Of a stretch of 64,000 bases of DNA, positions 4,972-61,242 are shown piece by piece. The position numbers and the translations under genes are program-made. How positions within the stretch are numbered: position 1 is the first letter of the stretch; each line of letters starts with the position of its first letter. The notes beneath the pieces are model-generated. The model made no database searches, was not told the DNA's origin, and saw only the letters and a list, made by a program, of their open reading frames with translations. The DNA comes from a virus (Duplodnaviria > Caudoviricetes), in the IMG/VR virus record IMGVR_UViG_3300032038_000021, positions 1 through 64,000 of that record, one strand, 5' to 3'.

Positions 4972-5313
4972 TTAAATAGTATAATTAAATCCATTAATAA
5001 TATAATATTCACCAGCACTTATAGTTACACTTGGCGTTGCATCAACAATACATGATTTTGTACCTTCTTGTAATCTATGGCAAAATTGTTTATTTCCATT
5101 ATTTTTTATTACTGAAAAATATGTAGAAGTAGCAAATGGATTTGGTATATTGAAATCTAATAATTTTAAATTAACTGCTATATTATTTGCCTGTATTTCT
5201 ACATATCCAGAGAAAAATATTAATTTATTAATACCATATACATATATTACAAAAGTTTTTAATGCTGCAGTATTAACTACGAAGTCATAGGTTACTATAC
5301 TATTATCATCATC
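4972..5313 (-). other. silent tail-fibre-tip cassette c1 (DDDNSIV...)
   Basis: 114-codon open frame starting at TGATGAT core, no RBS/ATG; beta-rich. Confidence 0.75.
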
Positions 5314-5641
5314 AATCGCCTATTGGCTCATAACTATATAATCTATATTTACCCCATTGAGGTACAGATATAGTAACATAATTCGTTGTTTTATTTACAG
5401 TAATAGATAAAGTAGAAATATTACCGTCTAATATCAAACTACCATTTGCTGATTTATCCCCACCTGTAATATAGAACAGTCCAATACCAGCTATACTATT
5501 AAAATTACCAAATAAATAAAATGCTTGTTTAAATATCATAGGTGGTTTAAATGTTATAGATGTTGAACCATTGTTGGTATCGAACGCTTTACAATAAAGT
5601 GTAACTCCATTTATTCTATTGGATATCTCTTGAGCTTCATC
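5312..5641 (-). other. silent cassette c2 (DEAQEIS...)
   Basis: 110-codon frame from TGATGAA core; its stop is the TGA of the c1 core. Confidence 0.75.
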
Positions 5642-5644
5642 AGG

Positions 5645-6072
5645 TCTGTTTTTACCAAATATTCTACATATATTATAAAAAAGAAATCTGGATGATATAA
5701 GAGTATCATAGAAGATAATCCAGATTTCTTTATAAGATATCAGAGCATTATATTACGATAATACTCTAATGTCTTTATGATCAAGGTTGTCAGGTTTAAC
5801 GGGGAAATAATCGTTTAAGAACCTGACAACTTCTGTCGAAAACATATTGTTAGGATTCTGTGATATAGAATCTTTAGTAATGTTTCTGGAGACAATATTA
5901 TGCAGCAATGCTAATATTGTCTCTTTTGACAGATTGTAAGTGCCAAGATTCATATATTATACCTCCTTTCTGAGTATTTCTTCTATACTCTTATATCAGA
6001 GGTATAATATATGAATCAAAATAGTAACTTTTACAAATATAATCCCAGTAGGATTATTTCCTACTGGGATTA
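5645..6072 (-). repeat. ~420-bp small-gene module, copy 1
   Basis: Flanks similar to 7690-8117 and 54260-54688. Confidence 0.85.
5753..5953 (-). CDS. 66-aa MNLG-family small protein, copy 1
   Basis: AAGGAGG RBS; paralogs at 7798 and 54367. Confidence 0.8.
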   Translation of the reverse strand: MNLGTYNLSKETILALLHNIVSRNITKDSISQNPNNMFSTEVVRFLNDYFPVKPDNLDHKDIRVLS

Positions 6073-6130
6073 TATTTTTTATTTGAAATTTTTAACTCCA
6101 CGTTAATACTGTCCAATCGTGCAATCTATC

Positions 6131-6307
6131 TCATATATTGATTATATTTCTGGATATTAATACGATAAGAATTATTAATAGTAAATATGCTATAATAACA
6201 CTCTCTATATATTTAGATCTTTTATGATGTATAGATTTATAAATAAATGATGCTATAAATAATAAAATTACTAGTATCACTAATACCACCAATAATACAT
6301 TAAGCAT
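6131..6307 (-). CDS. small two-TM membrane protein (58 aa)
   Basis: Manual translation MLNVLLVVLVIL...; GGAGG RBS. Confidence 0.55.
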   Translation of the reverse strand: MLNVLLVVLVILVILLFIASFIYKSIHHKRSKYIESVIIAYLLLIILIVLISRNIINI

Positions 6308-6412
6308 ATATTAGTCCTCCTTTAATAATTAGTAATAGTAGTAGTAATATATTATATTTATAACTTTAAAATAATCTGTAAATATAGTTTTACCCTAAAG
6401 GAGGTACTAATC

Positions 6413-6988
6413 ATGGTTGGTCGTTGGAATGTAGATGTAAAGATGGGGATATATCCGCAGAAGGTTGCTACTGCTCTTGCTGGTCTTGGTGAAAAGCTTA
6501 CCGGAGCAGAATATACTCCGATTGCTTATATCGGTACTCAGGAAGTTAATGGTATTAACCACGCTATTTTAGCAGAGCAGCTTCTTACTACTGGTAAGGA
6601 TACTAAGAATATCGTTCTTCTTATCTTTAACGAAAAGGGAATGAATTGTGATTTGATTGCTATCGAAAGAGTAGTATCTGGTGGTGGAGCTCTTGGTGGA
6701 GTCAATATTGAAGTCCGTACTCAGATCCCGGAAGAAGCTCAGAAGGCTTATGATGCTTCCTTTGAAGGATATGTTGGTGGAGATTTCAAGCCGGTAATTT
6801 ATCTTGGTACTCAGATTACTAAGGGTGTAAATTATCTGTTTGGCGTAGAGTGTGATCCTGTTGTAAAGGATCCTCATAAGGAATTCTATATTATTTCTGT
6901 AAATAAGCTTACTGGTAAGGTTGCTTTTAAGCAGATTCTTTCGGATGATTTTGATACACATCCTTTTGGGTATGCATTTACTTGGTAA
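6413..6988 (+). CDS. uncharacterised two-repeat protein, paralog of 53132-53722
   Basis: Internal repeat P(I/V)xY(I/L)GTQxxxG(I/V)N; strong RBS. Confidence 0.8.
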   Translation: MVGRWNVDVKMGIYPQKVATALAGLGEKLTGAEYTPIAYIGTQEVNGINHAILAEQLLTTGKDTKNIVLLIFNEKGMNCDLIAIERVVSGGGALGGVNIEVRTQIPEEAQKAYDASFEGYVGGDFKPVIYLGTQITKGVNYLFGVECDPVVKDPHKEFYIISVNKLTGKVAFKQILSDDFDTHPFGYAFTW

Positions 6989-7083
6989 TATAAAACAATT
7001 ATAATTTACCCATAGGGATAAAACCCTATGGGTATTTTTATTGAATAACTATATTAGTAGAAAATCGACTAAAATTGGAGATT

Positions 7084-7383
7084 TTACACCAATTCAATAT
7101 CACTTGGATACAAACTAAGAAAAGAAAATGACCAATAGGGTAAATTTACTGTATATACAAATTTATTAACTTCTGATAAATTAAACGATCCAGTTGTCCC
7201 TGATTTCGTTATCTCGCGAATATTTTCTCTACAATAAAAACAAATATAAAAATTTGCACCTCCAGTATGTGATATTAATATTATACCTACCAAACCACTA
7301 TCATATCTACTGATTACAGTTATTTTTTTGGAATTAGCTTCATAAATAGAATAAAATCTTTTACCTATATTATTCAGATCATC
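7084..7383 (-). other. silent cassette c3 (DDLNNIGK...)
   Basis: 100-codon frame from TGATGAT core. Confidence 0.75.
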
Positions 7384-7403
7384 AAAAGGTTTTAAATTAT
7401 ACA

Positions 7404-7670
7404 TTAATTACTATCAGATGATTTCTTCCATGATTTATCTAATCTTCTAGCCCAAATATCTCCATATTGACCTATTAATAATTGCATTAGATACATTGGC
7501 TCAATACTTCTCCCTAAAACGAATAAAACTCCCCAAGGTGAAGTATTTGGAGAATTTGTTAAACCGGTAGTTGCATAATAAATACCGATTGCTGTTATAG
7601 TATTTAGATCAACATCAGTCAATACATCTTTATATGTAAAATTAATAAGTTTTGAATTATTCAAATCATC
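7404..7670 (-). other. silent cassette c4, pyocin-knob-like fibre tip (DDLNNSK...)
   Basis: DLN...GIY...NSP...WGVLFV...Q...IWAR...W pattern. Confidence 0.75.
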
Positions 7671-7797
7671 AATCGTTTATATTTTTATTATATATTCTAC
7701 ATATATTATAAAAAAGAAACTTAGATAATATAAGAGTATCATAGAAGATAATCTAAGTTTCTTTATATAATGATATTAAATCATTATCATATTAGCC

Positions 7798-7998
7798 CTA
7801 TGATAATACCATAATATCATTATGTGTAATATTATCTGGTTTGTGTTTTAAATATGTTTTAGCAAACCTGATGGCTTCACGGGAGAATTCATTATTTGAA
7901 TTCTCCTGTAAGCTATCGGTGGTAATATTACCATCGACAATACCGTGCATAATTGCAAGCATTGTTTCTTTAGGTAAATAAAAGGTACCTAAATTCAT
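7798..7998 (-). CDS. 66-aa MNLG-family small protein, copy 2
   Basis: Paralog of 5753-5953 with the same flanking module. Confidence 0.8.
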   Translation of the reverse strand: MNLGTFYLPKETMLAIMHGIVDGNITTDSLQENSNNEFSREAIRFAKTYLKHKPDNITHNDIMVLS

Positions 7999-8123
7999 AT
8001 ATTATACCTCCTTTCAAAAGTATTTCTCCTATACTCTTATATCAGAGGTATAATATATGAATCAAATTAGCAACTTTTACAAATATAATTCCCAGTAGGT
8101 TTATAACCTACTGGGGTAATTAT

Positions 8124-48083: not shown

Positions 48084-49781
48084 TTATTTGGTTTCATAAT
48101 AGCTCTCAAGGCTATTCTTGATCACGTTTCCTTCCGAGTCGAAGTTAAACTTTCTAACCTCAACTGAGAAGTATTCTGGCTTCACGTTGATTATCGTCGA
48201 TACGATGTTTATAAATAACTCTTTATAATCTGCAATAGATTTACATACAATAGCAGCAGAAGTCTTCCTTGCAGGGTTATGAGCATTCTCGTTACAAACG
48301 ATAATATACAGGCAGTTAGTGCTCTGCTCTATATCTTTCATTGTACTGCATTTATATCTATAGATATAATCACCAAACGTTCTATATATTGCAGACACTC
48401 CCACACCCACTTCTCTATAAGTAGGATATTTATTGACACTATAGGGCTGCACATTATATTTTCTAGTATCATTATTATAGTGCAAGCAACAAAGATTCAC
48501 TTTAAGTTCCTCACAGGCTTTAATAAACGATACAAGAGGGCTCTGAAGACCCGTACAATAAAGATTAACTGATTTGTTTGCTCTACCTTCAGAATCGAAC
48601 CTCAGATATTTCTTGAGGAAATCCTTACATATCTGAAGCTGCTTATCATAATCAAACATAGTCTCTTTGTCGAGACCATCTTCAAATACTCCTTTAACAG
48701 CAGGAGTAGAATGTCTTCCATCTACTAATACACATTCAAACACCGGAGATGCAGAAGTAATTCTGTTAATATTCTTATTATGCAGAATACTCCGCGTATA
48801 CATACCAGGTATACCAGGTTTTATATATGACTCTTCGATGATTTCAGTTTTAGCTTTCTCAACAATGGTATCAACAACAGGTTCTTCTGTTGTAACTTCT
48901 ACTGTATTTACTGTAGGTGCCGGTATTTCTTTTTCCGGCTCACGAATAGGGTCCTGAACCTTTTCTTCTACAGCAACAACTTCTTCTTTCTTTACAGCTG
49001 TTGTGCTGCTTTTATTATTAGAGGAAGCTTTATTTTTATTATTCTGTAGCTTGAGCCTCCTTGCCTTAGTTTTCTTTTTCACTTCCTCATCCTCCTCGTT
49101 CGGCCTGTTAATATCATTCTTCTTTTTCACGTTACTTACTGTATTCTGACTCACATTGGCAAGTTCAGCAATCTCGTACTGTGTTAATGATGTGGTTTTA
49201 AGATCGTTGATAATCCGATCAACAATCTCCTTCGGTATCTTATTTGAAGGAGAATAGCAGGCGTAGAAATTATGATCCATCTTTACATTTGTATATTCCT
49301 TCATATAAGAAATAAGCGACACTATAGATACAAAATATTTTTCTGCAAGTTTACTCAATTCAAATCTGGTAATATATCTAGTACCGTCAATTTCAGCAGT
49401 AGCAGCCTTCTCAATCTTATCCGCTATAAACAGCTTCTCGTCATCGGTGAAACGCTTCTTCTTATCCTGATCTTCTTTGGTACGAGTCCAGACAAATTTT
49501 GGTTCTACGTCGTTGTTTTTTACAACAGAATGAGGTTCTTCTTTTATTATCATATATTCATTTCCCATTGAATTTGCAGTTTCCACCGGCTGCTGTGTTT
49601 TGATAGAATTCTTCAACGCAATAATCCTACCTTTGTTTCTTTTGCTTATGGTTAATACCTGGGATATATCCACCCCATATTTCTTCGCCATATTTTTTAA
49701 CGAAGATAAACTGTTGTTATCAGACTCTGCGAGTGCCGATATGATACAATCTTGCAAACTCTTTGTCATTTCCTTGTACAT
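48084..49781 (-). CDS. multidomain HTH protein with Rossmann/CARF-like module
   Basis: HTH LTQYEIAELANVSQNTVSNV; GRH...LYCTGL...LHYN module. Confidence 0.55.
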   Translation of the reverse strand: MYKEMTKSLQDCIISALAESDNNSLSSLKNMAKKYGVDISQVLTISKRNKGRIIALKNSIKTQQPVETANSMGNEYMIIKEEPHSVVKNNDVEPKFVWTRTKEDQDKKKRFTDDEKLFIADKIEKAATAEIDGTRYITRFELSKLAEKYFVSIVSLISYMKEYTNVKMDHNFYACYSPSNKIPKEIVDRIINDLKTTSLTQYEIAELANVSQNTVSNVKKKNDINRPNEEDEEVKKKTKARRLKLQNNKNKASSNNKSSTTAVKKEEVVAVEEKVQDPIREPEKEIPAPTVNTVEVTTEEPVVDTIVEKAKTEIIEESYIKPGIPGMYTRSILHNKNINRITSASPVFECVLVDGRHSTPAVKGVFEDGLDKETMFDYDKQLQICKDFLKKYLRFDSEGRANKSVNLYCTGLQSPLVSFIKACEELKVNLCCLHYNNDTRKYNVQPYSVNKYPTYREVGVGVSAIYRTFGDYIYRYKCSTMKDIEQSTNCLYIIVCNENAHNPARKTSAAIVCKSIADYKELFINIVSTIINVKPEYFSVEVRKFNFDSEGNVIKNSLESYYETK

Positions 49782-50016: not shown

Positions 50017-50331
50017 TTATCTTCCATATACGATAACACGAAGTAGTGTATTTCCACTTTCCATATAATACCTTACAAGCGAATTATTAAAAAATATATA
50101 TAGAACCGCAATAATTGTACTGGTGTCATCTATTACACCTAAATAACATGGTTTACCAATTATATATCTGCTAGTATATATAATTCCTCCACCAAATGGT
50201 TGACCGCTATTATCTCTACCATACAAAACCATAATATCTGATATATTGTCAGGAATAGTAACATCAACAGGTGTTCGAGAACTTGTAGTATTATCGTTAA
50301 TAACGATAAATTGTTTGTTTATTTTTTCATC
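50017..50331 (-). other. silent cassette c5 (DEKINK...)
   Basis: 105-codon frame from TGATGAA core. Confidence 0.75.
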
Positions 50332-50371
50332 ATCTTCTAAATTTATATTATAAATAAGTTTTAGTTGTTAA

Positions 50372-50659
50372 TTATTGAAGAATTTTCCACGAATCCCATG
50401 TTTGAGGATTTCCAACTCTTCGCCTGAACCCTTGTGAATTTCCACCTATAATTAATTGTATTCTGAAAGTATCGAATTGTATAAGTACTCCGTACCATGG
50501 AGAAAATTTAGATGGAAAACTTGTATGAACAAATTCTGTGCTAGATCCTATAGCATAATAACCAACACCTATATCTGTATTATCTATATTACCGGAAAAA
50601 TAACCTCTATTTCTTAACGGATAGCTTGACAATTTACAATAATTATTATTCAAATCATC
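50372..50659 (-). other. silent cassette c6, pyocin-knob-like (DDLNNNY...)
   Basis: 96 codons from core; WYGVLI..IQL...RR....WDSWK. Confidence 0.75.
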
Positions 50660-50678
50660 AATCGGTTGTAAAATTATA

Positions 50679-50963
50679 TTATGTTTTAGCAAGTACGTAC
50701 CAACTAGTAAAACTATTATTAAGTCTATATCTAAGCACAGTTTGATTAGTATATATTTGTATTTGTATTCCATAGTCTAATGTTCTACGATATGATATGA
50801 TAAAATGAATATTACCTTTTAAATGAGCATCAGTTTCATATTGACCGTGACTAAAGGAAATTGATCCAGTAGGTTGATTATTAAATAGATCGGCGCATGA
50901 ATATGATTCATTTAATAATATAGGTGAAAATGTACATTTACTACGAAACTGTGTAGCTTCATC
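50679..50963 (-). other. silent cassette c7 (DEATQF...)
   Basis: 95-codon frame from core, absent from ORF track; ends FTSWYVLAKT. Confidence 0.75.
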
Positions 50964-50976
50964 AATCGATTAAAAA

Positions 50977-51276
50977 TTATAATTCTTTTACAGGCTGCCA
51001 AGTGCCACTAATTTTTGTTTGATAAAGTAATTTACTAGTATTATATCCAAAAACTAAACCAGCAGCATAATCACTAGTTGCAAATTTTTGCACTATACAA
51101 GTAAAATTTCCATATACAAATATTATACCTATATGTATTTTATTATCGTTATCTATACTATCTATAGCTGTAGATATAACATCTTTGATTTGATTAGTAT
51201 TTTTATAACTTAAATAAAACGAATTACCAATATAACTAGTTATTTTATTTAATTTCTCAATAGGACCATTTTCATC
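50977..51276 (-). other. silent cassette c8 (DENGPI...)
   Basis: 100-codon frame from core; ends SGTWQPVKEL. Confidence 0.75.
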
Positions 51277-51433
51277 AAAACAATCGGCTCTAGGGTTAAT
51301 TCCCTAGAGCCGTTAAAATTGCTAAAAATAATCATATATTATATTTTAAATAAATAATAGGAAACTGGATTAAATTATAGAAAGGTGGTGATTATATAAG
51401 GATAAAAGAAATAGGAAATAGACAAGGAGGTGA

Positions 51434-51607
51434 ATGAGATTGATTTATCTTAATAAAGATCAAATAGATCAAGTTGTCCAGATTGCAAAGTCGATACGAC
51501 CTGATCTATTTCCTGATGGCAACCATATCATTGGGAGATCTTATAAAGATTTATTTGAAGTTTCTAATCTTTACAGAACTATCTGTAAAGATTTAGGATA
51601 CAGATAA
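51434..51607 (+). CDS. 57-aa protein with complementary 5'/3' flanks
   Basis: AAGGAGG RBS, MRLIYLNKDQIDQVV...; early motif at 51334. Confidence 0.6.
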   Translation: MRLIYLNKDQIDQVVQIAKSIRPDLFPDGNHIIGRSYKDLFEVSNLYRTICKDLGYR

Positions 51608-51778
51608 TAAATCACAAAAACCCGTAGTAACAATCCAATCTTTTATCCTAATCTATTTCCTATTATTTATTTGTAAAAAGAAAAGTAAATATTAAATATT
51701 TACTTTTCTTTTTTATCTGTATAATAATTTATAATTACCTCTTTATATTTTATAGTTTTCTGATGCTTAGAATCTTAA

Positions 51779-52138
51779 TCATATTGATGCTGATATTGAT
51801 TGTATTGTATTTGGTACTTGCCCATATATAATACCTAACCAATGTGTATATTGAATGTTTGCTGTGATCTTTATAGTTTTATTTGTAATTGTAGCTGTAG
51901 GGGTGGGTGGATTGTTACCACTATCACCACCACCAATAAATATAATAGTCGGATTATTAGATCCAGAAAAGAAACATAAATACATATTAGCATTTAATAC
52001 TAATAATATTCCACCATAACAAGCATTAAAATCCCCTACAGTAATATTTACATATTTTTTATTTATATATGAAAATATTATAGATTTTCAGAAAAAAGTA
52101 GTATATGATAATTGATTTTTAATCTGTGTATTTTCATC
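51779..52138 (-). pseudogene. cassette c9 (DENTQIK...) with in-frame TGA at codon 17
   Basis: Frame from core continuous except TGA at 52090-52088. Confidence 0.65.
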
Positions 52139-52190
52139 ATAAGTCAGTGAAATATAAGTAGATTTGGTAACTCACTGTATATAAGGAGTC

Positions 52191-52649
52191 TTAGAAGCTA
52201 ATTTTAGCGAGTGGAACCACACCACGACTGAGATCCGTCTTGATGTTGTACAAGATATCCCCACTCTCAAGGACAACATATGCGTTAGAATCGTTATATT
52301 TAGTGCTTGTCCAATATGGAAATCCATTATTTCGCACATATTTATTTATCATATTGGCTTCACTTTGAGTTGGGATTTTACAATTCTCTACCCTAATATC
52401 ACTAGATTTAAGATATAAGACTACTGTCCAAGAACAGTTACAAGCATCAGACCAATTTAAACTATCCTCATTAAGTCCTTTATAATTATATTGTGTATCA
52501 TATTTTCTACTTCCAATTGTAAAGTCAGTTCCCAAAAACCATGCAGCGGATCCGGATCTATAAGCACAAATAAATTGCATAGATCCTTTTTGATTTCCAT
52601 TATATGAACCTCTTACAAATGTACCTACTTTTATATTATTCAAATCATC
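52191..52649 (-). other. silent cassette c10, C-type-lectin-like with DGR-VR-like C-terminus
   Basis: DDLNNIK...YWTST..N..NAYVV...G...GVVP. Confidence 0.7.
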
Positions 52650-52727
52650 AAAAAGTTGTACTTACACCTATATTTCGTATTTGAGTAGCTTCTCATAAAC
52701 TATATTGGAGTTTAATAATATAAAACT

Positions 52728-53048
52728 TTATTGTATTGGATATATTATAGTAAATGCTCCATTTGCCGATGTTGCTGCCGATGCAGCAGAAATCTTGATG
52801 CACCCATATACATCCATAATAACAGTCATATGATTTACACCATAATCACCAAAGTGTCCTTGTGTGCTAAGACCATAGCTTGGGTAATATGCTATTGGCA
52901 TAACATCAACATTCAGTACAGTAGTCCACATAGTAGTTGGTTTCATACTATCACCATCAATCCATACTATATTACTCAGTACGCAATATATAATTGTGCC
53001 TTGATTTGCTGACAATGTTGACCATGGTACTTTGTAATTAAATTCATC
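52728..53048 (-). other. silent cassette c11 (DEFNYK...)
   Basis: 107 codons from core. Confidence 0.75.
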
Positions 53049-53131
53049 ATAAGGTCATTATTTGTATACTATTAATAATATAACTATAAAATAATTACTT
53101 CATAATCTATTTTATAAGGAGGTTTAAACCT

Positions 53132-53722
53132 ATGGGTGTTGGAGCTTGGAACGTAAATGTAGTTACTGGTGGAATGCCTGAGAAGATTGCTACGGCAGTA
53201 TCTAAGGTAAATGAGCAGTTTGTTGGTGCCGAATATACTCCTATTGCTTATGTAGGATCTCAGGTGGTGAATGGAACTAATCATGCAGTTCTTGCTGAAC
53301 AGCTTCTTGTTACTGGTAAGGATCAGAAGAATGTAGTTCTTCTTATCTTTAACGAAAAGGGAATGGATGTAGATCTCGTTGCGATTGAGAGAATCGTTGA
53401 ATCTGGAGAAGCACTCGGCGGTACTGTTGTAGACGTTAAGACCGATATCCCGGAAGATGCTCGGAAGACATTTGATAGAGTGCTTGGTGGATTTGTTGGT
53501 GCTGCGGTTGAGCCGGTAGCTCTTCTTGCAACTCAGGTTGTTAAGGGAGTTAATTACGTTTTTGCTGCGGAGGTAACTCCTGTAGCTGTTACGGCTGGAG
53601 AACCTGTAAAGAAGTTCTGTGTTGTTGTTGTGAATAGTCTTGATAAGAAGGCTAGTTTTGCAGATGTTCTAAAAAGCGGATTGGAAGTTGCTCTTGGTAA
53701 ACCACTTGGTGAATGGCCGTAA
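53132..53722 (+). CDS. uncharacterised two-repeat protein, paralog of 6413-6988
   Basis: Shared GAEYTPIAY, NHA.LAEQLL.TGKD. Confidence 0.8.
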   Translation: MGVGAWNVNVVTGGMPEKIATAVSKVNEQFVGAEYTPIAYVGSQVVNGTNHAVLAEQLLVTGKDQKNVVLLIFNEKGMDVDLVAIERIVESGEALGGTVVDVKTDIPEDARKTFDRVLGGFVGAAVEPVALLATQVVKGVNYVFAAEVTPVAVTAGEPVKKFCVVVVNSLDKKASFADVLKSGLEVALGKPLGEWP

Positions 53723-53793
53723 TTAATAATAATTAGAGGTGTTGCAGATCCCCTAGGGAATAATTCCCTAGGGGATCTTTTTTGTTTTAATTT

Positions 53794-54054
53794 TTATAAT
53801 GATATATAATATATATGATATGTAAAATTTTTATTAATATACGGTGTATTATCTAATCTATTATTAACTATCAATATATATTCTCCACTGGTTTTAATTG
53901 ATAATGAAGAATGTAATAATGCACTATTAGCTTCACATCGTGCAGATAAAACAATATAATTATATATACTATATCCTGTAATACATTCACCTTGTCCGTT
54001 TGTAGTATCTGTTAATACTTTTTTACTAATTGTTTTAAACTTAGAATTTTCATC
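53794..54054 (-). other. silent cassette c12 (DENSKF...)
   Basis: 87 codons from core; resembles c23. Confidence 0.7.
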
Positions 54055-54366
54055 AAAACCTTTAATTATATTTTTCTACAGTCTTCAACTTTTATACTTT
54101 AGTTTTTATATTTAGTATATTCTTAATCTTTTCGAATAGGACAAATCCTTCTTCTATTTTTCTCATAGATGGGTTGGGAGAATTCTTAATCAATTTTTCT
54201 ATTGATTCAGCCCAATCAGATTTCATGATTTCATCTTCTATAAACTCTTATTTCAACTAGGTCTGATTTTACAAAATAGTCTACATATATTATAAAAAAG
54301 AAATCTGGTGTATGAGAGTTGTAATAGAAGATAAACCAGATTTCTTTTTAGATTTAGAATATTATG

Positions 54367-54567
54367 TTATGATAATACTCTAATATCTTTATGTTCAAGG
54401 TTACTGGGTTTCACCTTGAAATAATTACTGAGAAATCTAATAATTTCTTTAGAAAATCTATTATTAGGATTTTCCGAAATCGAGTTTTCAGTAATATCAC
54501 CATCTACAATACTATGCAATAAATACAACATAGTACTTTTGGGCAAATAGTACGAACCTAAATTCAT
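54367..54567 (-). CDS. 66-aa MNLG-family small protein, copy 3
   Basis: Paralog with the same flanking module. Confidence 0.8.
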   Translation of the reverse strand: MNLGSYYLPKSTMLYLLHSIVDGDITENSISENPNNRFSKEIIRFLSNYFKVKPSNLEHKDIRVLS

Positions 54568-54809
54568 ATATTATACCTCCTTTCAATAGTATTTCTTCTA
54601 TAACTCTCATACTAGAGGTATAATATATGAATCAAATTAGTAACTTTTACAAATATAATTCCCAGTAGGTATAATACCTACTGGGATAATTATTCCATAT
54701 ATGTATATATTATTAGTCACTAAGATTAATCCTAGTGACTTACTATTATCTTAATGTTTTTCAATACGATCACATTAAGATAATTTAAAAGAAAGGAAGG
54801 TCTTTTTCT

Positions 54810-55582: not shown

Positions 55583-55948
55583 TCAATATAAAGGTGCAAT
55601 AAATATAGAATACAAATGTTCTGGGCCTGTGTGAACATTACCACAATATGTATGTATTTCTAAACTACTATTTATATATAATGTAAGATCTTGTTGATTA
55701 TCGTTTCTGTTTATCATACAAATTGGATAATCAAAGGTTGTACGATATTGAGGTCTTATTACACTACTTGAATTTATACCACAAACAGTATTGTTTTGAT
55801 ATGTAGCTCCAGATTTCATTTTTATAATAGAAAAGAAAATACCAAGCTTCACTAATGGGTTATAAGTGCAAAACATTTCTGTTGTATTGTCTACCAAATT
55901 GGTATTTACGGAAATAGTAATTGCTGTATGCTTCCACGACTTATCATC
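55583..55948 (-). other. silent cassette c13 (DDKSWK...)
   Basis: 122 codons from core. Confidence 0.75.
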
Positions 55949-55963
55949 AATCGGTTAAAAATT

Positions 55964-56236
55964 TTATTTAATCTGAATCCATTTACTAGTCCAATTACCA
56001 TTACCATATTTAAATCTAAAAAACAAACTAGCAGATTCATATTCTCTAATAGCTATTTGTATTGAATACGTTGATTTCAAAACAATTAATACTCCACCAG
56101 TAAAAACTGTTGGAAAATTATTTCCGGCAGTACCTACACAATACACACCAGAATCATTAATAGAATTAGCATCTATGTTATTTTTTATATCTTGTATAAA
56201 AGGTATTCTAGTTTGTCCAAACTCATCCACATCATC
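55964..56236 (-). other. silent cassette c14, pyocin-knob-like (DDVDEF...)
   Basis: DAN...SGVY...NFP...GVLIV...QIA...FR....W..W. Confidence 0.75.
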
Positions 56237-56263
56237 ATGCGTTATATTAATAATTATATATCA

Positions 56264-56584
56264 TTAGCTTGCCGGTGGTACAAGAGTAAAAATACAAAAA
56301 TTATACTGTTTTCCTACTGTTATTGTAGAATCATGTTTAAAAGTGCTTAACCTATAATCACTAGCCCAAGCTTTTATTAGATTACCATTTGTACTATCCC
56401 TTATTAATATTCCTTGTACCGGAAATTTAAAGTTGTTGGGTAAGTTAAATGTAATTTCGTCTGTATCTGTAGAACTTGCAATAAAAACTCCATATACAAA
56501 TCCAATATATTTAGTATAAACAATTTTAACAACGGTATTAGATCTATTTGTACTAACTGAAGCTGAATGAAAGCTATTATCATC
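56264..56584 (-). other. silent cassette c15 (DDNSFH...)
   Basis: 107-codon frame from core, missed by ORF track. Confidence 0.75.
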
Positions 56585-56610
56585 AATCGTTATAAAAATA
56601 TAAATTTATT

Positions 56611-56916
56611 TTACGATGCTTTATACCAAAGACTAAGTACATTAATACTAGGAATAACTAATTGATTTGAAAAATTATAAAGAAATACACTACCAATGTA
56701 AATATCATTGGTTCTTATTGACACACCTGCACAATGAAATATTATGCCGTTATCTATATAATCACTTGGAATAACTGAAGCATGTATTGGTTTATAATTG
56801 GTTTCGGTTATTGCAGTACAAAATACATTAGCTTTAGAATTTGCCGGTACACCACTAAAGGTATTAGGTATTATTTGAGTTTTCTTTGTTTTATAAATTC
56901 TTATAAAATTTTCATC
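56611..56916 (-). other. silent cassette c16 (DENFIR...)
   Basis: 102 codons from core. Confidence 0.75.
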
Positions 56917-56936
56917 ATCGTTCATTTTGCAAGAAA

Positions 56937-57233
56937 TTACAATTTTTTCCAACTGGACCAAGACGCAAGATCTGAAGTTCCTCTAATAGCAATTCCACCT
57001 CCTTTATACTCTAATGCTAGTTGCGTACAATGTGATCTAATAACTCTAATTACAATTAAATATATGGTTGGATAAGGTATGTTTAAAATAGTACCACCAC
57101 CAGCTGTATTAAGCCAATATATACCAGTTTCAGTTGCTTGATTTATATTTGTTATAGTAGTATAATCTCTTTTATATATTATATTATGATAATTTGCTGC
57201 TTCTTTAACTCTATTTCTAAACGAGCTATCATC
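56937..57233 (-). other. silent cassette c17, pyocin-knob-like (DDSSFR...)
   Basis: 99-codon frame; NIN..TETGIYW...QLA...IR...WSSWKKL. Confidence 0.75.
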
Positions 57234-57325
57234 ATCTTATATTATATTATTTTTAATTTATTATAGCATACACAGTATAATAAATTTTGTAGTTGTATTA
57301 TCTTTTATCATACTGGAGGTTTATT

Positions 57326-57814
57326 ATGCTTGACGTTAAATTAACAGTTTCTGCACCGTGGTTTATTCATTATCGTAAGCTTCAGGCTATGTTCCTTGAA
57401 GATCCTCAGGTAACAGTAAAGTTTGATCAGGATAATTATGAAGTTAAGTTGTATGTAGATGATGCTGATAAGGCAGAAGCTCTTGGAAAGATTCTTAGGA
57501 ATAGTATTGATTATGGTACTATTACCCTTAAGGTTACTGTAATTCCTCCGAATTATACCGATACTAATATTAGAGATCTTTATGAAAAGGCTTTGGAAGG
57601 AAATGGAGCGGTTTCTGATTACCTTACCAATCAGGTTATTGGTAAGAATTATGTAATCTTTAAGAATGAAGTAGTTCAGTACTTTAGCGATGATCTCAGT
57701 AAGGCTAATAGTGTAACTTCTACTTTGTATGAAAATATTGCTGAAGATATATTTATTGATAGAGCTGAAATGGGTTATTCTACTGAGCTTGGAGAGAATG
57801 TGATTAGAGATTAA
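57326..57814 (+). CDS. hypothetical protein (SAPW...F.EDP motif)
   Basis: GGAGG RBS, CACA-N6-TA motif at 57271. Confidence 0.7.
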   Translation: MLDVKLTVSAPWFIHYRKLQAMFLEDPQVTVKFDQDNYEVKLYVDDADKAEALGKILRNSIDYGTITLKVTVIPPNYTDTNIRDLYEKALEGNGAVSDYLTNQVIGKNYVIFKNEVVQYFSDDLSKANSVTSTLYENIAEDIFIDRAEMGYSTELGENVIRD

Positions 57815-57871
57815 TAATATAAAATCCCAGTGAATTATTCACTGGGATTTATTTTTATAATTTATAATATA

Positions 57872-58156
57872 TTATGTAAAATTTATAACAGTCCAGTTGG
57901 TCCAACCACTAGATGAATGTCTCCTTCTATACATTTTTGCATTACGCATAGAGAATGCTATTTGTAGTACATCTTCACCCATTCTTATACTTAATACAGC
58001 AATAAATGATTCGGGAGCATTATTAATATTAGCACCAAAATAGTATAATCCAGAGTTAGCTGTGAGATTATTTAAATCTGTAAATCCTGCATTGCCTACA
58101 TTAGGCAATATTCCAACTGCATTTGTAAGTATTTCTGTCTTAGAATCCAGATCATC
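57872..58156 (-). other. silent cassette c18, pyocin-knob-like (DDLDSK...)
   Basis: DLN...SGLY...NAP...QIA...MYRR....WTNW. Confidence 0.75.
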
Positions 58157-58168
58157 AATCGAGTTTTA

Positions 58169-58369
58169 TTATTTAGTCCAAATTGTATCCCACTCTGTTC
58201 CATTAAACCATCTGTACATTATATTTTTATTATTAAATACAAGCGAATATACATGACTAGTCGAATTCGAATTCAAATGCAAATTTATCCAATGTGTATC
58301 TCCTGTATTATTAGTACCAAATGCTATTTTATTAGTACGATTAAACTCGAATTTCGAGTTTAATTCATC
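58169..58369 (-). other. silent cassette c19 (DELNSK...)
   Basis: 67-codon frame from core, ends WDTIWTK. Confidence 0.7.
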
Positions 58370-58880
58370 ATAAGGCTACAAGTATAATATTCAAAATACG
58401 CGTACATTATTTAAAGTGGTTGTTAATGCTTTTTCGGCTGAAACAAAAAGATGGATTGATACTCACCATATTTTGTCACTGTCATTTCAGTGTCGACTTT
58501 TATATCTATATAACCTGTTTTTCTTGAGTTTTAATTTATAAGATAACAAAAAGACCCATAATACATTTTATTTGGCTGATATTGTTCTCTTGCAAAAAAA
58601 CCCGAATCGTCATAAAAACCCATTACAGAATAACTATCAGCAGATGGAGTAAGATAAACTCTACCTGCTAGTCCTGGAATATATCCTGTTGGAAATTGAA
58701 AAATGCTAATATTGGGACTGGTGCTATAACTAGCTATGTTAGAACCAGTATGTAATGCAAAATGACAAATTCCAATTCTTTTGTATTTTAGACAAACTAA
58801 ATTTAAAGAAGCATTGGTATTAGTATAATTTCCATTTAAAGCTGTTGTTCCTGGTTTGTTTATACTATCATAATCATCAT
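58365..58880. repeat. direct repeat copy A (copy B 60456-60982), bounded by TCATCA cores
   Basis: Visual alignment. Confidence 0.9.
58531..58878 (-). other. silent cassette c20 (DDYDSI...), variant of c24
   Basis: 116 codons; near-duplicate of 60630-60980. Confidence 0.8.
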
Positions 58881-58949
58881 AATCTTCTGAAAATTAATTT
58901 ATTAAATATAAATATAATAATATACTATATTTATAAGGAGGTAAAATAT

Positions 58950-59276
58950 ATGAATTTATCTATTGTACGTACTGTAGATGAGATGTATAACTATATAGAC
59001 ATTATCTTTAATACTGCTTTATCTAATAAAGCTGATAGAATCGTGTTTCTTAATACTTATAATAATCAGTCCAGTTTAAAAGCTAATAGATTTGTTGCAA
59101 ATTATTTGAAACAAGATACTTACGGTAATGAAACTGTAATATCTATGTATGATAATATGTTGGAGATTGATAATATTAATATACTATATAAAGCTATAAA
59201 TAAATTTAAAGAAAAATATAATAATATTCCAATAGAAGTTTGGACTGATTATAGTACCGGTAAAGTGTATTGGTAA
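58950..59276 (+). CDS. hypothetical early protein
   Basis: ATATACTATA at 58920; AAGGAGG RBS. Confidence 0.65.
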   Translation: MNLSIVRTVDEMYNYIDIIFNTALSNKADRIVFLNTYNNQSSLKANRFVANYLKQDTYGNETVISMYDNMLEIDNINILYKAINKFKEKYNNIPIEVWTDYSTGKVYW

Positions 59277-59300
59277 GTTTTATAAATAGGAGAATATAAT

Positions 59301-59618
59301 ATGAGTAATAAATTAGGGGATAAAATATTAAAATTATGTAAACAAAAAGGACTAAAGCAAAGAGATTTAGCAGATAAAATAGGAGTTACTGAAGTCAGTG
59401 TGAGTAGATATATTCGTGGTACTAGAATTCCTAATGCTAATATACTAAAGAAGATGGCTGAAGTATTAGAAGTTAGTGTTGGAGAAATCTTAGGAGAGAA
59501 AGATAAAACAGAAGAAGAGAGTGAGAAATTTGATAGTGCTTATAATACTATAAAAGAAATAAAAGATAAACTTACTGTAGAAGAGAAAATGAAAATAGTA
59601 AGATTATTATTTATATAA
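59301..59618 (+). CDS. XRE-family HTH transcriptional regulator
   Basis: LKQRDLADKIGVTEVSVSRYIRG.R.P. Confidence 0.9.
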   Translation: MSNKLGDKILKLCKQKGLKQRDLADKIGVTEVSVSRYIRGTRIPNANILKKMAEVLEVSVGEILGEKDKTEEESEKFDSAYNTIKEIKDKLTVEEKMKIVRLLFI

Positions 59619-59749
59619 TGATCTTAAGTTGATTTATTGTGAATAATATAAACCCGTAGAGTATTATTACTCTACGGGTAAATAAATCATAATTATCTAT
59701 AATATTATTTATTTTTTAGTTCGGTTCATGATTTTTATCTGTAGAAGGA

Positions 59750-59893
59750 TTAGAGGATGATTTTAGCAAGAAGTACCACACCATGAATGGGACTCGAAAA
59801 GTCAAAAGTGCTGATATATCCTAATTCGGTGACACAATAGGCTTGGGATTCGTTATATCTAGCACTTGTCCAATACGAAAATCCATTATTTCT
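59750..59893 (-). pseudogene. orphan DGR-VR-like fragment (c21), paralog of the c10 C-terminus
   Basis: Gap-free alignment with 52191-52334; no core or RBS of its own. Confidence 0.65.
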
Positions 59894-59904
59894 TAGATAA
59901 ATAT

Positions 59905-60195
59905 TTATTGTGTTTGTCCAAATGCAATAATTTGACAATATACTGTTATTACTGTGCTATAAGAATTATGTACCTTTATCTTACAATAAGTTGATATACT
60001 CTGTAAAATAATAGTATCTATAAATTGTGGATTAATATTTGCTATAGTTGATAATGCTATATAAGGTGTCGATTTAAATTTAGCAGTAGAATAGTTTATA
60101 ATTATTTCATTATAACCATTTGCATTAACTGATTCACTTGCACCACCACTATATATTTTTGGGTTTGAATATTGTTCATTGATAACAGCATCATC
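59905..60195 (-). other. silent cassette c22, H-type-lectin-like (DDAVIN...)
   Basis: SGG..V......I.Y...F...P.IALS...IAFG pattern. Confidence 0.7.
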
Positions 60196-60208
60196 ATCGT
60201 TTTTAATT

Positions 60209-60460
60209 TTATTTATTATAGTATATAAAAGATACTTTAACACGCGTATCTGTCATTTTTTGATTATTATCTAACCTATATACATATATTTCATAATAAC
60301 CAGTATTATTATTTGTTGAGATAATACAATTTAAACCACCCCAATTATACGAATAAGCAGTTAATATATAAGAATTATACATATTAAGATTACTAATACT
60401 TATAACTCCAGTATTTGTATTCGTAACAGTAGAAGCTTTTAAAAAACCAACCAGATCATC
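60209..60460 (-). other. silent cassette c23 (DDLVGF...)
   Basis: 84-codon frame from core. Confidence 0.75.
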
Positions 60461-60629
60461 ATAAGGCTATGAGTATAATATTCAAATACCCGTACAGCAT
60501 TAAAGTAGTTGTTAATGCTTTTCCGACTGAAACAAAAAGATGGATTGATATCAACTCATATTTTGTCACTGTCATTTCAGTGTCGACTTTTATATCTATA
60601 TAACCTGTTTTTCTTGAGTTTTAATTTCT

Positions 60630-60980
60630 TTATACCTCAACAAGATAACAAAAAGACCCATAATAATCATTATTTGGTTTATATTGTTCTCTTGCATAAA
60701 AATTCGCATTATCAAACCAACCCATTACAGAATAACTATCAGTAGATGGAGCAAGATAAACTCTACCTGCTAATGTTGGAATATATCCTGTTGGAAAACT
60801 AAAAATGCTAATATTGGGACTGGTGCTATAACTAGCTATGTTAGAACCAGTATGTAACTTAAAATGACAGATTCCAATTCTTTTGTATTTCACACAAACT
60901 AAATTTAAAGAAGCATTGGTATTAGTATATTTTCCATTTAAAGCTGTTGTTCCTGGTTTGTCTATACTATTATAATCATC
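60630..60980 (-). other. silent cassette c24 (DDYNSI...)
   Basis: 117 codons from core. Confidence 0.8.
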
Positions 60981-61242
60981 ATCTGTCTTTTTAGGCTAAT
61001 ACATATCCTTATACATATAGATAATCCTCTGTATAAAAATATTCCAGTAGGATTCTTCCTACTGGGATTTAATAAATTTAAGACTATTATATTACTTTAT
61101 TTTGTATAGATTTTATCTTCATGATACTATATGATCGATTTGGTCGATTATAATAATGTTTGATTTCCAAAACACTTGTATAATCTTCCTATATTAGTTA
61201 TATTTATATGGGATTTTATTAATTATTTTCTAGGAGGTATCC

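Follow-up and report, generated by a model that had tools for sequence, protein, structure and literature searches.

The locus described here is a duplicated cassette within the first 64,000 nucleotides (nt), referred to below as the window, of the IMG/VR virus record IMGVR_UViG_3300032038_000021, which belongs to the Caudoviricetes (Duplodnaviria). The record is a single 118.9-kb contig with a CheckV completeness of ~48% and corresponds to about half of a jumbo-phage genome, with relatives on 250-300-kb contigs; positions beyond the window are given as genome positions. Its minus strand carries arrays of start-less coding cassettes, each led by the hexamer TGATGA (the core), and two members of one array, copy A (58365-58880) and copy B (60456-60982), form the duplicate.

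The two copies align over about 520 bp, as an earlier note made from the letters of this DNA had proposed, with 88.8% identity over 529 columns (MAFFT and self-blastn, E=0). The letters at the ends also read as that note had claimed: similarity starts at TCATCATAAGGCTA at 58365 and 60456, beside the differing left flanks TAAT and CAGA, and ends at AATCATCAT at 58880 and 60982, beside the differing right flanks AATCTT and CTGTCT. Each end lies 0-1 nt from TGATGA (TCATCA on the plus strand), on which self-blastn and MAFFT with 35-40 nt of flank agree, and the 35-40 nt beyond the ends align at the level of AT-rich noise. Pairwise mapping of the breakpoints, which had been put forward as the test able to overturn the proposal, places the limits of similarity neither past the cores nor well short of them. 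On the minus strand each copy is laid out as A-TGATGA, a frame of 115-116 codons, a non-coding tail of 160 or 168 nt and a closing ...CCTTA-TGATGA, in agreement with the proposed unit of a coding frame plus about 170 bp of non-coding tail, and 147 of 170 aligned tail columns are identical. The closing TGATGA is at the same time the first hexamer of the next, unrelated cassette, which reads P-Y-D-E-L-N-S-K... after copy A and P-Y-D-D-L-V-G-F... after copy B; the upstream DNA differs too, and the two copies indeed have different neighbours.

The copies are 11% divergent. Between them lie 2.1 kb of unique sequence, in which three other cassettes and two plus-strand genes are located. Their translations show 19 differences over 113 codons, clustered and mostly whole-codon replacements, and the underlying substitutions involve all bases and are not adenine-specific. 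The ratio of nonsynonymous to synonymous substitution rates (dN/dS) of 1.06 would fit surface diversification mixed with constraint and is also compatible with neutrality. An exact search of viral and metagenome contigs for a 31-nt conserved word of the tail gave no match.

A second core-to-core pair, with 81.5% identity over 319 nt, joins a cassette of another array in the window to a partner outside it (Table 1), and all four of its ends likewise fall on cores. As cores are spaced by ~350 nt, a random end would lie within 1 nt of a core ~1% of the time, and chance coincidence is excluded because the four ends of each of the two pairs lie that close. Flanking homology cannot have guided the transfers, since the core-bound ends of both duplicates have unrelated flanks. 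The position of the breakpoints suggests that TGATGA is itself the crossover site.

TGATGA occurs 29 times in the 118.9 kb, always on the minus strand and in clusters at 5306-7666, 50327-54050, 55944-60976 and 64683-66271. Every occurrence is framed as xxT GAT GA(T/A), encoding x-D-D/E, and this frame runs a median of 98 codons before closing (at least 66 at 27 of 28 distinct sites), compared with medians of 7 and 0 for the other two frames. An in-frame stop lies 1-12 codons ahead of the core in 22 of 27 cassettes, no ATG, GTG or TTG lies between that stop and the core in 23 of 27, and a Shine-Dalgarno sequence is found in none of the 27; the ATG within A-TGATGA, which is frequent, lies in a different frame from the cassette. 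The distance from a stop codon to the next core is often 3-25 nt. The residue before D-D varies freely at cassette starts, yet its codon always ends in T. In a set of 53 cassette cores taken from this phage and its relatives, only TGATGA and a W at +6 carry information, giving TGATGAW.

The hexamer is confined to these positions. When synonymous codons were shuffled within each of the 76 genes outside the arrays (31,222 codons, 344 x-D-D/E tripeptides), 127.7±7.7 sense TGATGA and 9.6±2.8 sense TCATCA were expected, and neither word is observed once. Where x-D-D/E follows a T-ending codon in these genes, Asp is written GAC in 41 of 41 cases. The purge appears common to the phage group, as the related phage L002 has in 19.6 kb only its junction TGATGA against 14.2 expected. 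Recognition on DNA is favoured because both orientations are depleted, and codon usage indicates that the hexamer is a nucleotide-level signal.

Other words are depleted genome-wide in a pattern expected for restriction sites, namely GCTAGC (0, 15 expected), GCAGTG/CACTGC (0, 12 expected) and GGATCC (10, 43 expected). These words, and the single orientation of all TGATGA, could be taken to mean that TGATGA is avoided as the site of a host enzyme, perhaps a Type III enzyme tolerating one orientation; yet the tolerated orientation is equally purged from the non-cassette genes of that strand, and the 29 kept sites all stand at in-frame cassette starts, although D-D can be written without the site, as in the 41 of 41 cases elsewhere. 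Restriction avoidance is therefore very improbable, and its Type III form was rejected for failing to explain the 29 kept sites or the purge of the tolerated orientation.

The only complete fibre gene of the record lies just outside the window at genome 65985-66626 on the minus strand and encodes a protein of 213 amino acids (aa; P0004) with an ATG and a ribosome site. Its constant part, comprising an N-terminal anchor and a stem, ends ...A-T-L-N-D-D exactly at a core (genome 66276), with D-D written as T GAT GA(T/A), and is followed by a head of ~95 aa; the constant-part side of this junction reads ...CTAAATGATGA. The N-terminus, K-P-R-R-G...L-P-Y, is typical of Mtd_N-type fibres, and the upstream gene matches PF18454 at 3e-17. 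Beside the fibre gene's own head, the library comprises 27 further heads and two with degenerate cores, in four arrays on the same strand. A ~260-nt leader upstream of the fibre gene (genome 66627-66889, L001:3128-3390, minus strand, outside the window) is conserved across six related phages, and its multi-helix fold shows covariation: 11 pairs change on both sides compared with 4.6±1.7 in shuffles, and 96% of cells are paired compared with 41-52% when partners are slid. The Shine-Dalgarno sequence lies within one of its hairpins, the leader has no Rfam match, and its invariant outer stem, AAATGATGG / CCATCATTT, nearly repeats the fibre junction AAATGATGA.

Ninety-four relatives were retrieved with the fibre protein as query. 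The nine closest have constant parts that are 87-98% identical and nine mutually unrelated tips from N-D-D/E on. In P0007, a 232-aa protein from another metagenome (ENA ERZ27256908), a constant part 98% identical to that of the fibre protein is joined at N-D-D to the studied cassette: its tip matches copy A with 96.5% identity over 115 aa and copy B with 84%, and the match starts at the core. As this fusion is called as a single 232-aa gene on its 3.69-kb contig, where the upstream gene order is the same, the join of stem and cassette exists in DNA. Aligned as nucleotides, L012 matches this genome at 99.9% identity for 930 nt; the match ends with the final base of the core, past which the two are unrelated, and in L011 and L013 (90.8%) similarity stops at the same base. 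The library duplicates weigh more than these fibre-junction breakpoints, because the flanks of the duplicates share nothing.

Arrays of TGATGA-led cassettes on the fibre-gene strand are found in L004, L005-7, L010, L011 and L013, with 8-13 cassettes within 10 kb in L004 and L005-7, and the one-strand pattern of TGATGA recurs in L004, L005 and L010. In L013 a homologue of the second duplicate pair stands second in the fibre-gene array, and its similarity again starts at the core. The expectation that a related unit would be found beside other neighbours in relatives was also borne out, as a homologue 66% identical to the studied cassette is last in the array in both L010 and L015. A blastn search of the array against GenBank phages gave no match, and an IMG/VR pattern search for the fibre protein found none. 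The contigs of L011 and L012 end 61-89 nt past the stop codon of the fibre gene, which would fit branching of the assembly graph from mixed tips in the sample. That copies A and B are merely strain variants of one locus wrongly set side by side is extremely unlikely: the record does come from a metagenomic assembly and related contigs tend to break just past the fibre tip, but the copies are 11% apart with 2.1 kb of unique DNA (the three cassettes and two plus-strand genes) between them, the members of the second pair are 13 kb apart, and L010 and L015 are independent assemblies holding a homologous cassette with other neighbours.

The product of the studied cassette belongs to no Pfam or PHROG family, and ESM Atlas gave unnamed clusters only. 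AlphaFold2, given seven sequences, predicts a beta sandwich of eight strands with a predicted local distance difference test (pLDDT) score of 61.7, and the top PDB matches of the model are all receptor-binding heads of phages p2 and TP901-1 (template modelling score 0.59-0.66, E ~2e-3), with adenovirus fibre knobs next. On this model the cassette appears to resemble the receptor-binding head domains of lactococcal phages, which are beta sandwiches of ~100 aa at the C-terminus of a trimeric fibre. The PHROG matches of another cassette, at 57875-58159, are weak; the top-ranking family has no known function, and a minor tail protein is among the others (E 0.001).

Taken together, the data make it probable that the arrays are a silent tip library of one short tail fibre, whose heads are exchanged at the DNA level through the TGATGA core. 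The proposal of the earlier note, that the exchange unit runs core to core with TGATGA as its junction, gains support from the second pair, the P0007 fusion, and the confinement and purge of the hexamer. The 520-bp unit would be one member of the silent receptor-binding-head library of the jumbo phage, and a head would come to be expressed once it is fused to the constant part by strand exchange at the hexamer. By one route, a core-to-core unit would be moved or copied into the fibre junction; by another, open to cassettes just downstream of the fibre gene, the intervening DNA would be deleted. For the arrays 5-61 kb off, nrdD/nrdG, head genes and others lie between them and the fibre gene, and transfer or copying of the core-to-core unit would be needed, of which the two duplicates would be the record, the studied one being the footprint of a single transfer to a new place in the library. 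The bare hexamer is seemingly sufficient for action, for which reason the phage would have removed it everywhere else.

Shufflon-like inversion is impossible because all sites are direct repeats. Candidate routes of transfer are excised circles as in integrons, single-strand intermediates of rolling-circle type, or template switching initiated at a nick, and the one-strand orientation would fit either of the latter two. The 160- and 168-nt tails fold no better than shuffles (z -0.8 and -2.1) and show no attC-like fold, and no conserved hairpin lies beside the cores (53 cassette cores; tails of copies A and B folded). We infer that the exchange is catalysed, site-specific and still active. A stronger form can be offered only tentatively, namely that a new jumbo-phage machinery reads the bare TGATGAW on one strand, acts in trans and copies or moves units from dispersed arrays into one fibre junction, giving a programmed repertoire of ~30 heads, with the word erased from the other quarter-megabase.

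A different role for the hexamer would be as an RNA or translation signal, UGAUGA serving for internal initiation, ribosome landing, or RNA cutting and joining, with the cassettes expressed in place or joined as RNA and DNA shuffling secondary. The purge is strongest in the sense orientation (0 against 128 expected), the cassettes downstream of the fibre gene sit between the fibre promoter and one terminator and are probably co-transcribed with it, and arrays 1a, 1b and 2 stand behind promoter-bearing 66-aa genes. This account is nonetheless unlikely, given that the antisense word is also absent from genes (0 against 9.6±2.8), that the P0007 fusion is one 232-aa gene and a DNA-level join, that arrays 56-61 kb from the fibre gene (cores 5306-7666 against 66276) cannot share its transcript, and that the ATG of A-TGATGA is out of the cassette frame; a free 100-aa head without an anchor could presumably not attach to the virion either. 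UGAUGA is also the box C consensus of C/D RNAs, a likeness judged to be a coincidence. Rfam gave no credible match in 49.5-67.5 kb.

Several observations weigh against a silent library with exchange through the core. The most distant relative, L005, keeps one in-gene TGATGA (position 1236). Among relatives, the same junction picture would result from a homologous crossover at any point of the conserved constant part. The structure model of the cassette is of low confidence (pLDDT 62), and a dN/dS of 1.06 alone is no proof of selection. With all sites direct, reciprocal recombination with distant arrays would delete essential genes, and a transfer or copying step must be assumed. The available 118.9 kb, ~48% of the genome by CheckV, contains no match to Phage_integrase PF00589, RVT_1 or Y1_Tnp PF01797 and no credible match to Resolvase PF00239, for which a single 12-bit hit with an internal stop was obtained; among ~60 proteins searched against Pfam and PHROGs no recombinase was found, the matches being to virion, polymerase, protease, RNase H and similar proteins. 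The genes flanking the arrays contain no serine or tyrosine recombinase domain. The 160- and 168-nt tails fold no better than shuffles (z -0.8 and -2.1) and show no attC-like fold, and no conserved hairpin lies beside the cores (53 cassette cores; tails of copies A and B folded).

The lack of a recombinase in the available sequence would also suit ordinary modular evolution, in which the cassettes are paralogous domain-sized genes or remnants, shaped by long-term illegitimate and homologous recombination among co-infecting relatives, with TGATGA a structural D-D hinge and the cores domain borders; so would a dN/dS of ~1 between copies A and B, the presence of one truncated and one frameshifted cassette, and the sharp junctions between relatives that constant-part crossovers can yield. 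Such evolution is an improbable source of the pattern, as the T before GAT is conserved though the preceding amino acid varies, the genome-wide synonymous purge leaves 0 occurrences against 128 expected, 8 of 8 duplicate ends fall exactly on a 6-bp word with unrelated flanks, and 27 long frames remain uninterrupted although they lack a ribosome site and, in most cases, a start codon.

The coordinates of the duplicated units and of the arrays are collected in Table 1.

Table 1. Features of the duplicated cassettes and of the TGATGA-led arrays in the window.
Feature	Position	Strand	Remarks
Copy A frame	58531..58881	-	Y-D-D-Y-D-S-I-N-K-P-G...C-Y-L-I-N; stop 58531-58533; no start codon, no ribosome-binding site
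Core TGATGA opening copy A	58874..58879	-	inter-copy similarity starts 1 nt upstream of core
Copy A non-coding tail	58371..58530	-	160 nt; 71-nt stretch identical in copy B; fold not significant, z = -0.8
Core closing copy A unit	58365..58370	-	opens cassette 58169-58375; similarity stops on last base of core
Copy B frame	60630..60983	-	D-D-D-Y-N-S-I-D-K-P-G...C-Y-L-V-E-V
Core TGATGA opening copy B	60976..60981	-	alignment, self-blastn
Copy B non-coding tail	60462..60629	-	168 nt; fold z = -2.1
Core closing copy B unit	60456..60461	-	opens cassette 60209-60466, a neighbour other than that of copy A
Second duplicate, member in window	50959..51277	-	self-blastn; partner genome 64373-64688, 13 kb apart
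Array 3	55583..60995	-	eleven TGATGA-led start-less cassettes including copies A and B
Genes interrupting array 3	57293-57814; 58950-59276; helix-turn-helix (HTH) gene 59301-59618	+	
Array 2	50017..54570	-	eight TGATGA-led cassettes behind 66-aa gene 54367-54570
Arrays 1a and 1b	4972..8001	-	two cassettes behind each 66-aa gene (7798-8001; 5753-5956); cores 7666, 7379, 5637, 5306/5309

The three 66-aa genes that head cassette arrays (5753-5956, 7798-8001 and 54367-54570, minus strand) are paralogous (M-N-L-G-T/S-Y...), each with a strong ribosome site, and have a promoter region common to all three. Each is followed by a hairpin with a 13-bp stem, compensatory changes and a T-run, and similarity among these units stops at, or no more than 12 nt from, the next core. 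Neither the 66-aa genes nor the embedded plus-strand genes belong to a family in Pfam or PHROGs. The paralogous plus-strand genes of 191 and 196 aa at 6413-6988 and 53132-53722, inside arrays 1 and 2, share 71% nucleotide identity and likewise have no Pfam or PHROG family.

Some cassettes are damaged. The one at 59750-60252 (minus strand, core at 60191) carries a frameshift that splits it into two overlapping frames, the second half aligning at 78% over 78 nt with the C-terminal portion of the 152-aa cassette at 52191-52650, and the one at 52088-52139 (minus strand) closes after 16 codons. The degenerate cores both lie in the fibre-gene array outside the window, CGATGA at genome 65711-65716 and TAATGA at genome 64373-64378, and the L005 homologue of the cassette opening with TAATGA has an intact TGATGA. 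Directly downstream of array 2, a 565-aa protein (48084-49781, minus strand) has three N-terminal HTH motifs, a charged linker and a 230-aa alpha/beta C-terminal domain; a search returned only close relatives, and its model (pLDDT 54.5) has weak matches (Z no higher than 5.7) to CARF-, SAVED- and RuvC-like alpha/beta folds. The region at genome 75.6-88.2 kb, beyond the window, holds genes of 1381 and 2544 aa that are rich in internal repeats (280-560 nt, 65-80% identity).

The duplicate with homology-free flanks is the cleanest in-genome evidence that the hexamer delimits the exchanged unit, and it fixes that unit as core to core. Should the exchange be programmed, one fibre gene with ~30 alternative heads would act as a host-range switch of unusual capacity, the fibre locus would assemble poorly from metagenomes, and one 'species' may bind many hosts. 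Heads exchanged through the core would also point to an uncharacterised strand-exchange or nick-and-copy enzyme of 6-bp specificity, of interest for recombination enzymology and as a possible tool.

A literature search found no description of such a TGATGA tip-exchange system. The closest described system is the Rin shufflon, to which Min of p15B, Gin of Mu and Cin of P1 are similar. In the Rin shufflon of Bifidobacterium prophages, a constant Rc gene is combined with variable Rv genes bearing TP901-1-like heads through the 11-bp rix site and an adjacent tyrosine invertase, and rix is a short asymmetric repeat that precedes every variable segment and is described as scarce in the remainder of the host genome (Mavrich et al. 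2018, PMC6109161). The fibre described here likewise pairs a constant N-terminal receptor-binding part with alternative C-terminal segments, each led by a short asymmetric repeat, whose heads are predicted to resemble those of TP901-1. Shufflons invert DNA between inverted sites, all within a compact locus beside the invertase. Here, by contrast, all 29 TGATGA are direct, the four arrays are scattered across 61 kb of a 119-kb record, the site measures 6-7 bp, the word is purged genome-wide, units appear to be copied core to core, and no recombinase was found nearby or in the available half genome.

Integrons (IntI, attI x attC) offer a second parallel in their promoterless, co-oriented cassettes with a short core at both ends, one expression site, varying neighbours and a core-to-core unit. 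The present arrays differ in the absence of attC hairpins, the next core often lying 3-25 nt away and the 160-nt tail having no significant fold; in a core of TGATGAW and not GTTRRRY; in the lack of an IntI (PF00589) match in the available 118.9 kb; and in start-less cassettes that would fuse in frame into a protein, where integron cassettes are read as whole genes. The single-strand orientation of sites would fit elements of IS200/IS605 type, which have a Y1 HUH transposase and subterminal hairpins beside a 4-5-nt target, although the available half genome has no Y1 match and the cores no conserved hairpin.

Neisseria pilE/pilS, Borrelia vlsE and the trypanosome VSG genes vary by gene conversion, for which they need host RecA pathways and flanking homology of tens to hundreds of bp. 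They share with the present arrays one expression locus, a library of start-less partial genes and non-destructive copying of the donor, and differ in that the system here is a viral one with the hexamer as its only shared sequence. Diversity-generating retroelements acting on Mtd-type fibres, as in Bordetella phage BPP-1, also diversify a receptor-binding C-terminus behind an Mtd_N-like N-terminus. A retroelement of this kind was considered for the present fibre and rejected, as the available half genome has no RVT_1 and no template and variable repeat pair and the differences are not adenine-specific; whole domains would be exchanged here and not mutated. Receptor-binding heads are also exchanged among the lactococcal phages p2, TP901-1 and bIL170 (chimeras PDB 3d8m and 3da0), where the fold is the same as that predicted here and the exchange point is at the neck-head border. 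That exchange takes place between genomes over evolutionary time, and we know of no in-genome head library or dedicated junction word in lactococcal phages. If the exchange proposed here is programmed, its recognition word would be so short that the whole genome has been rewritten around the hexamer, unlike shufflons, integrons and retroelements.

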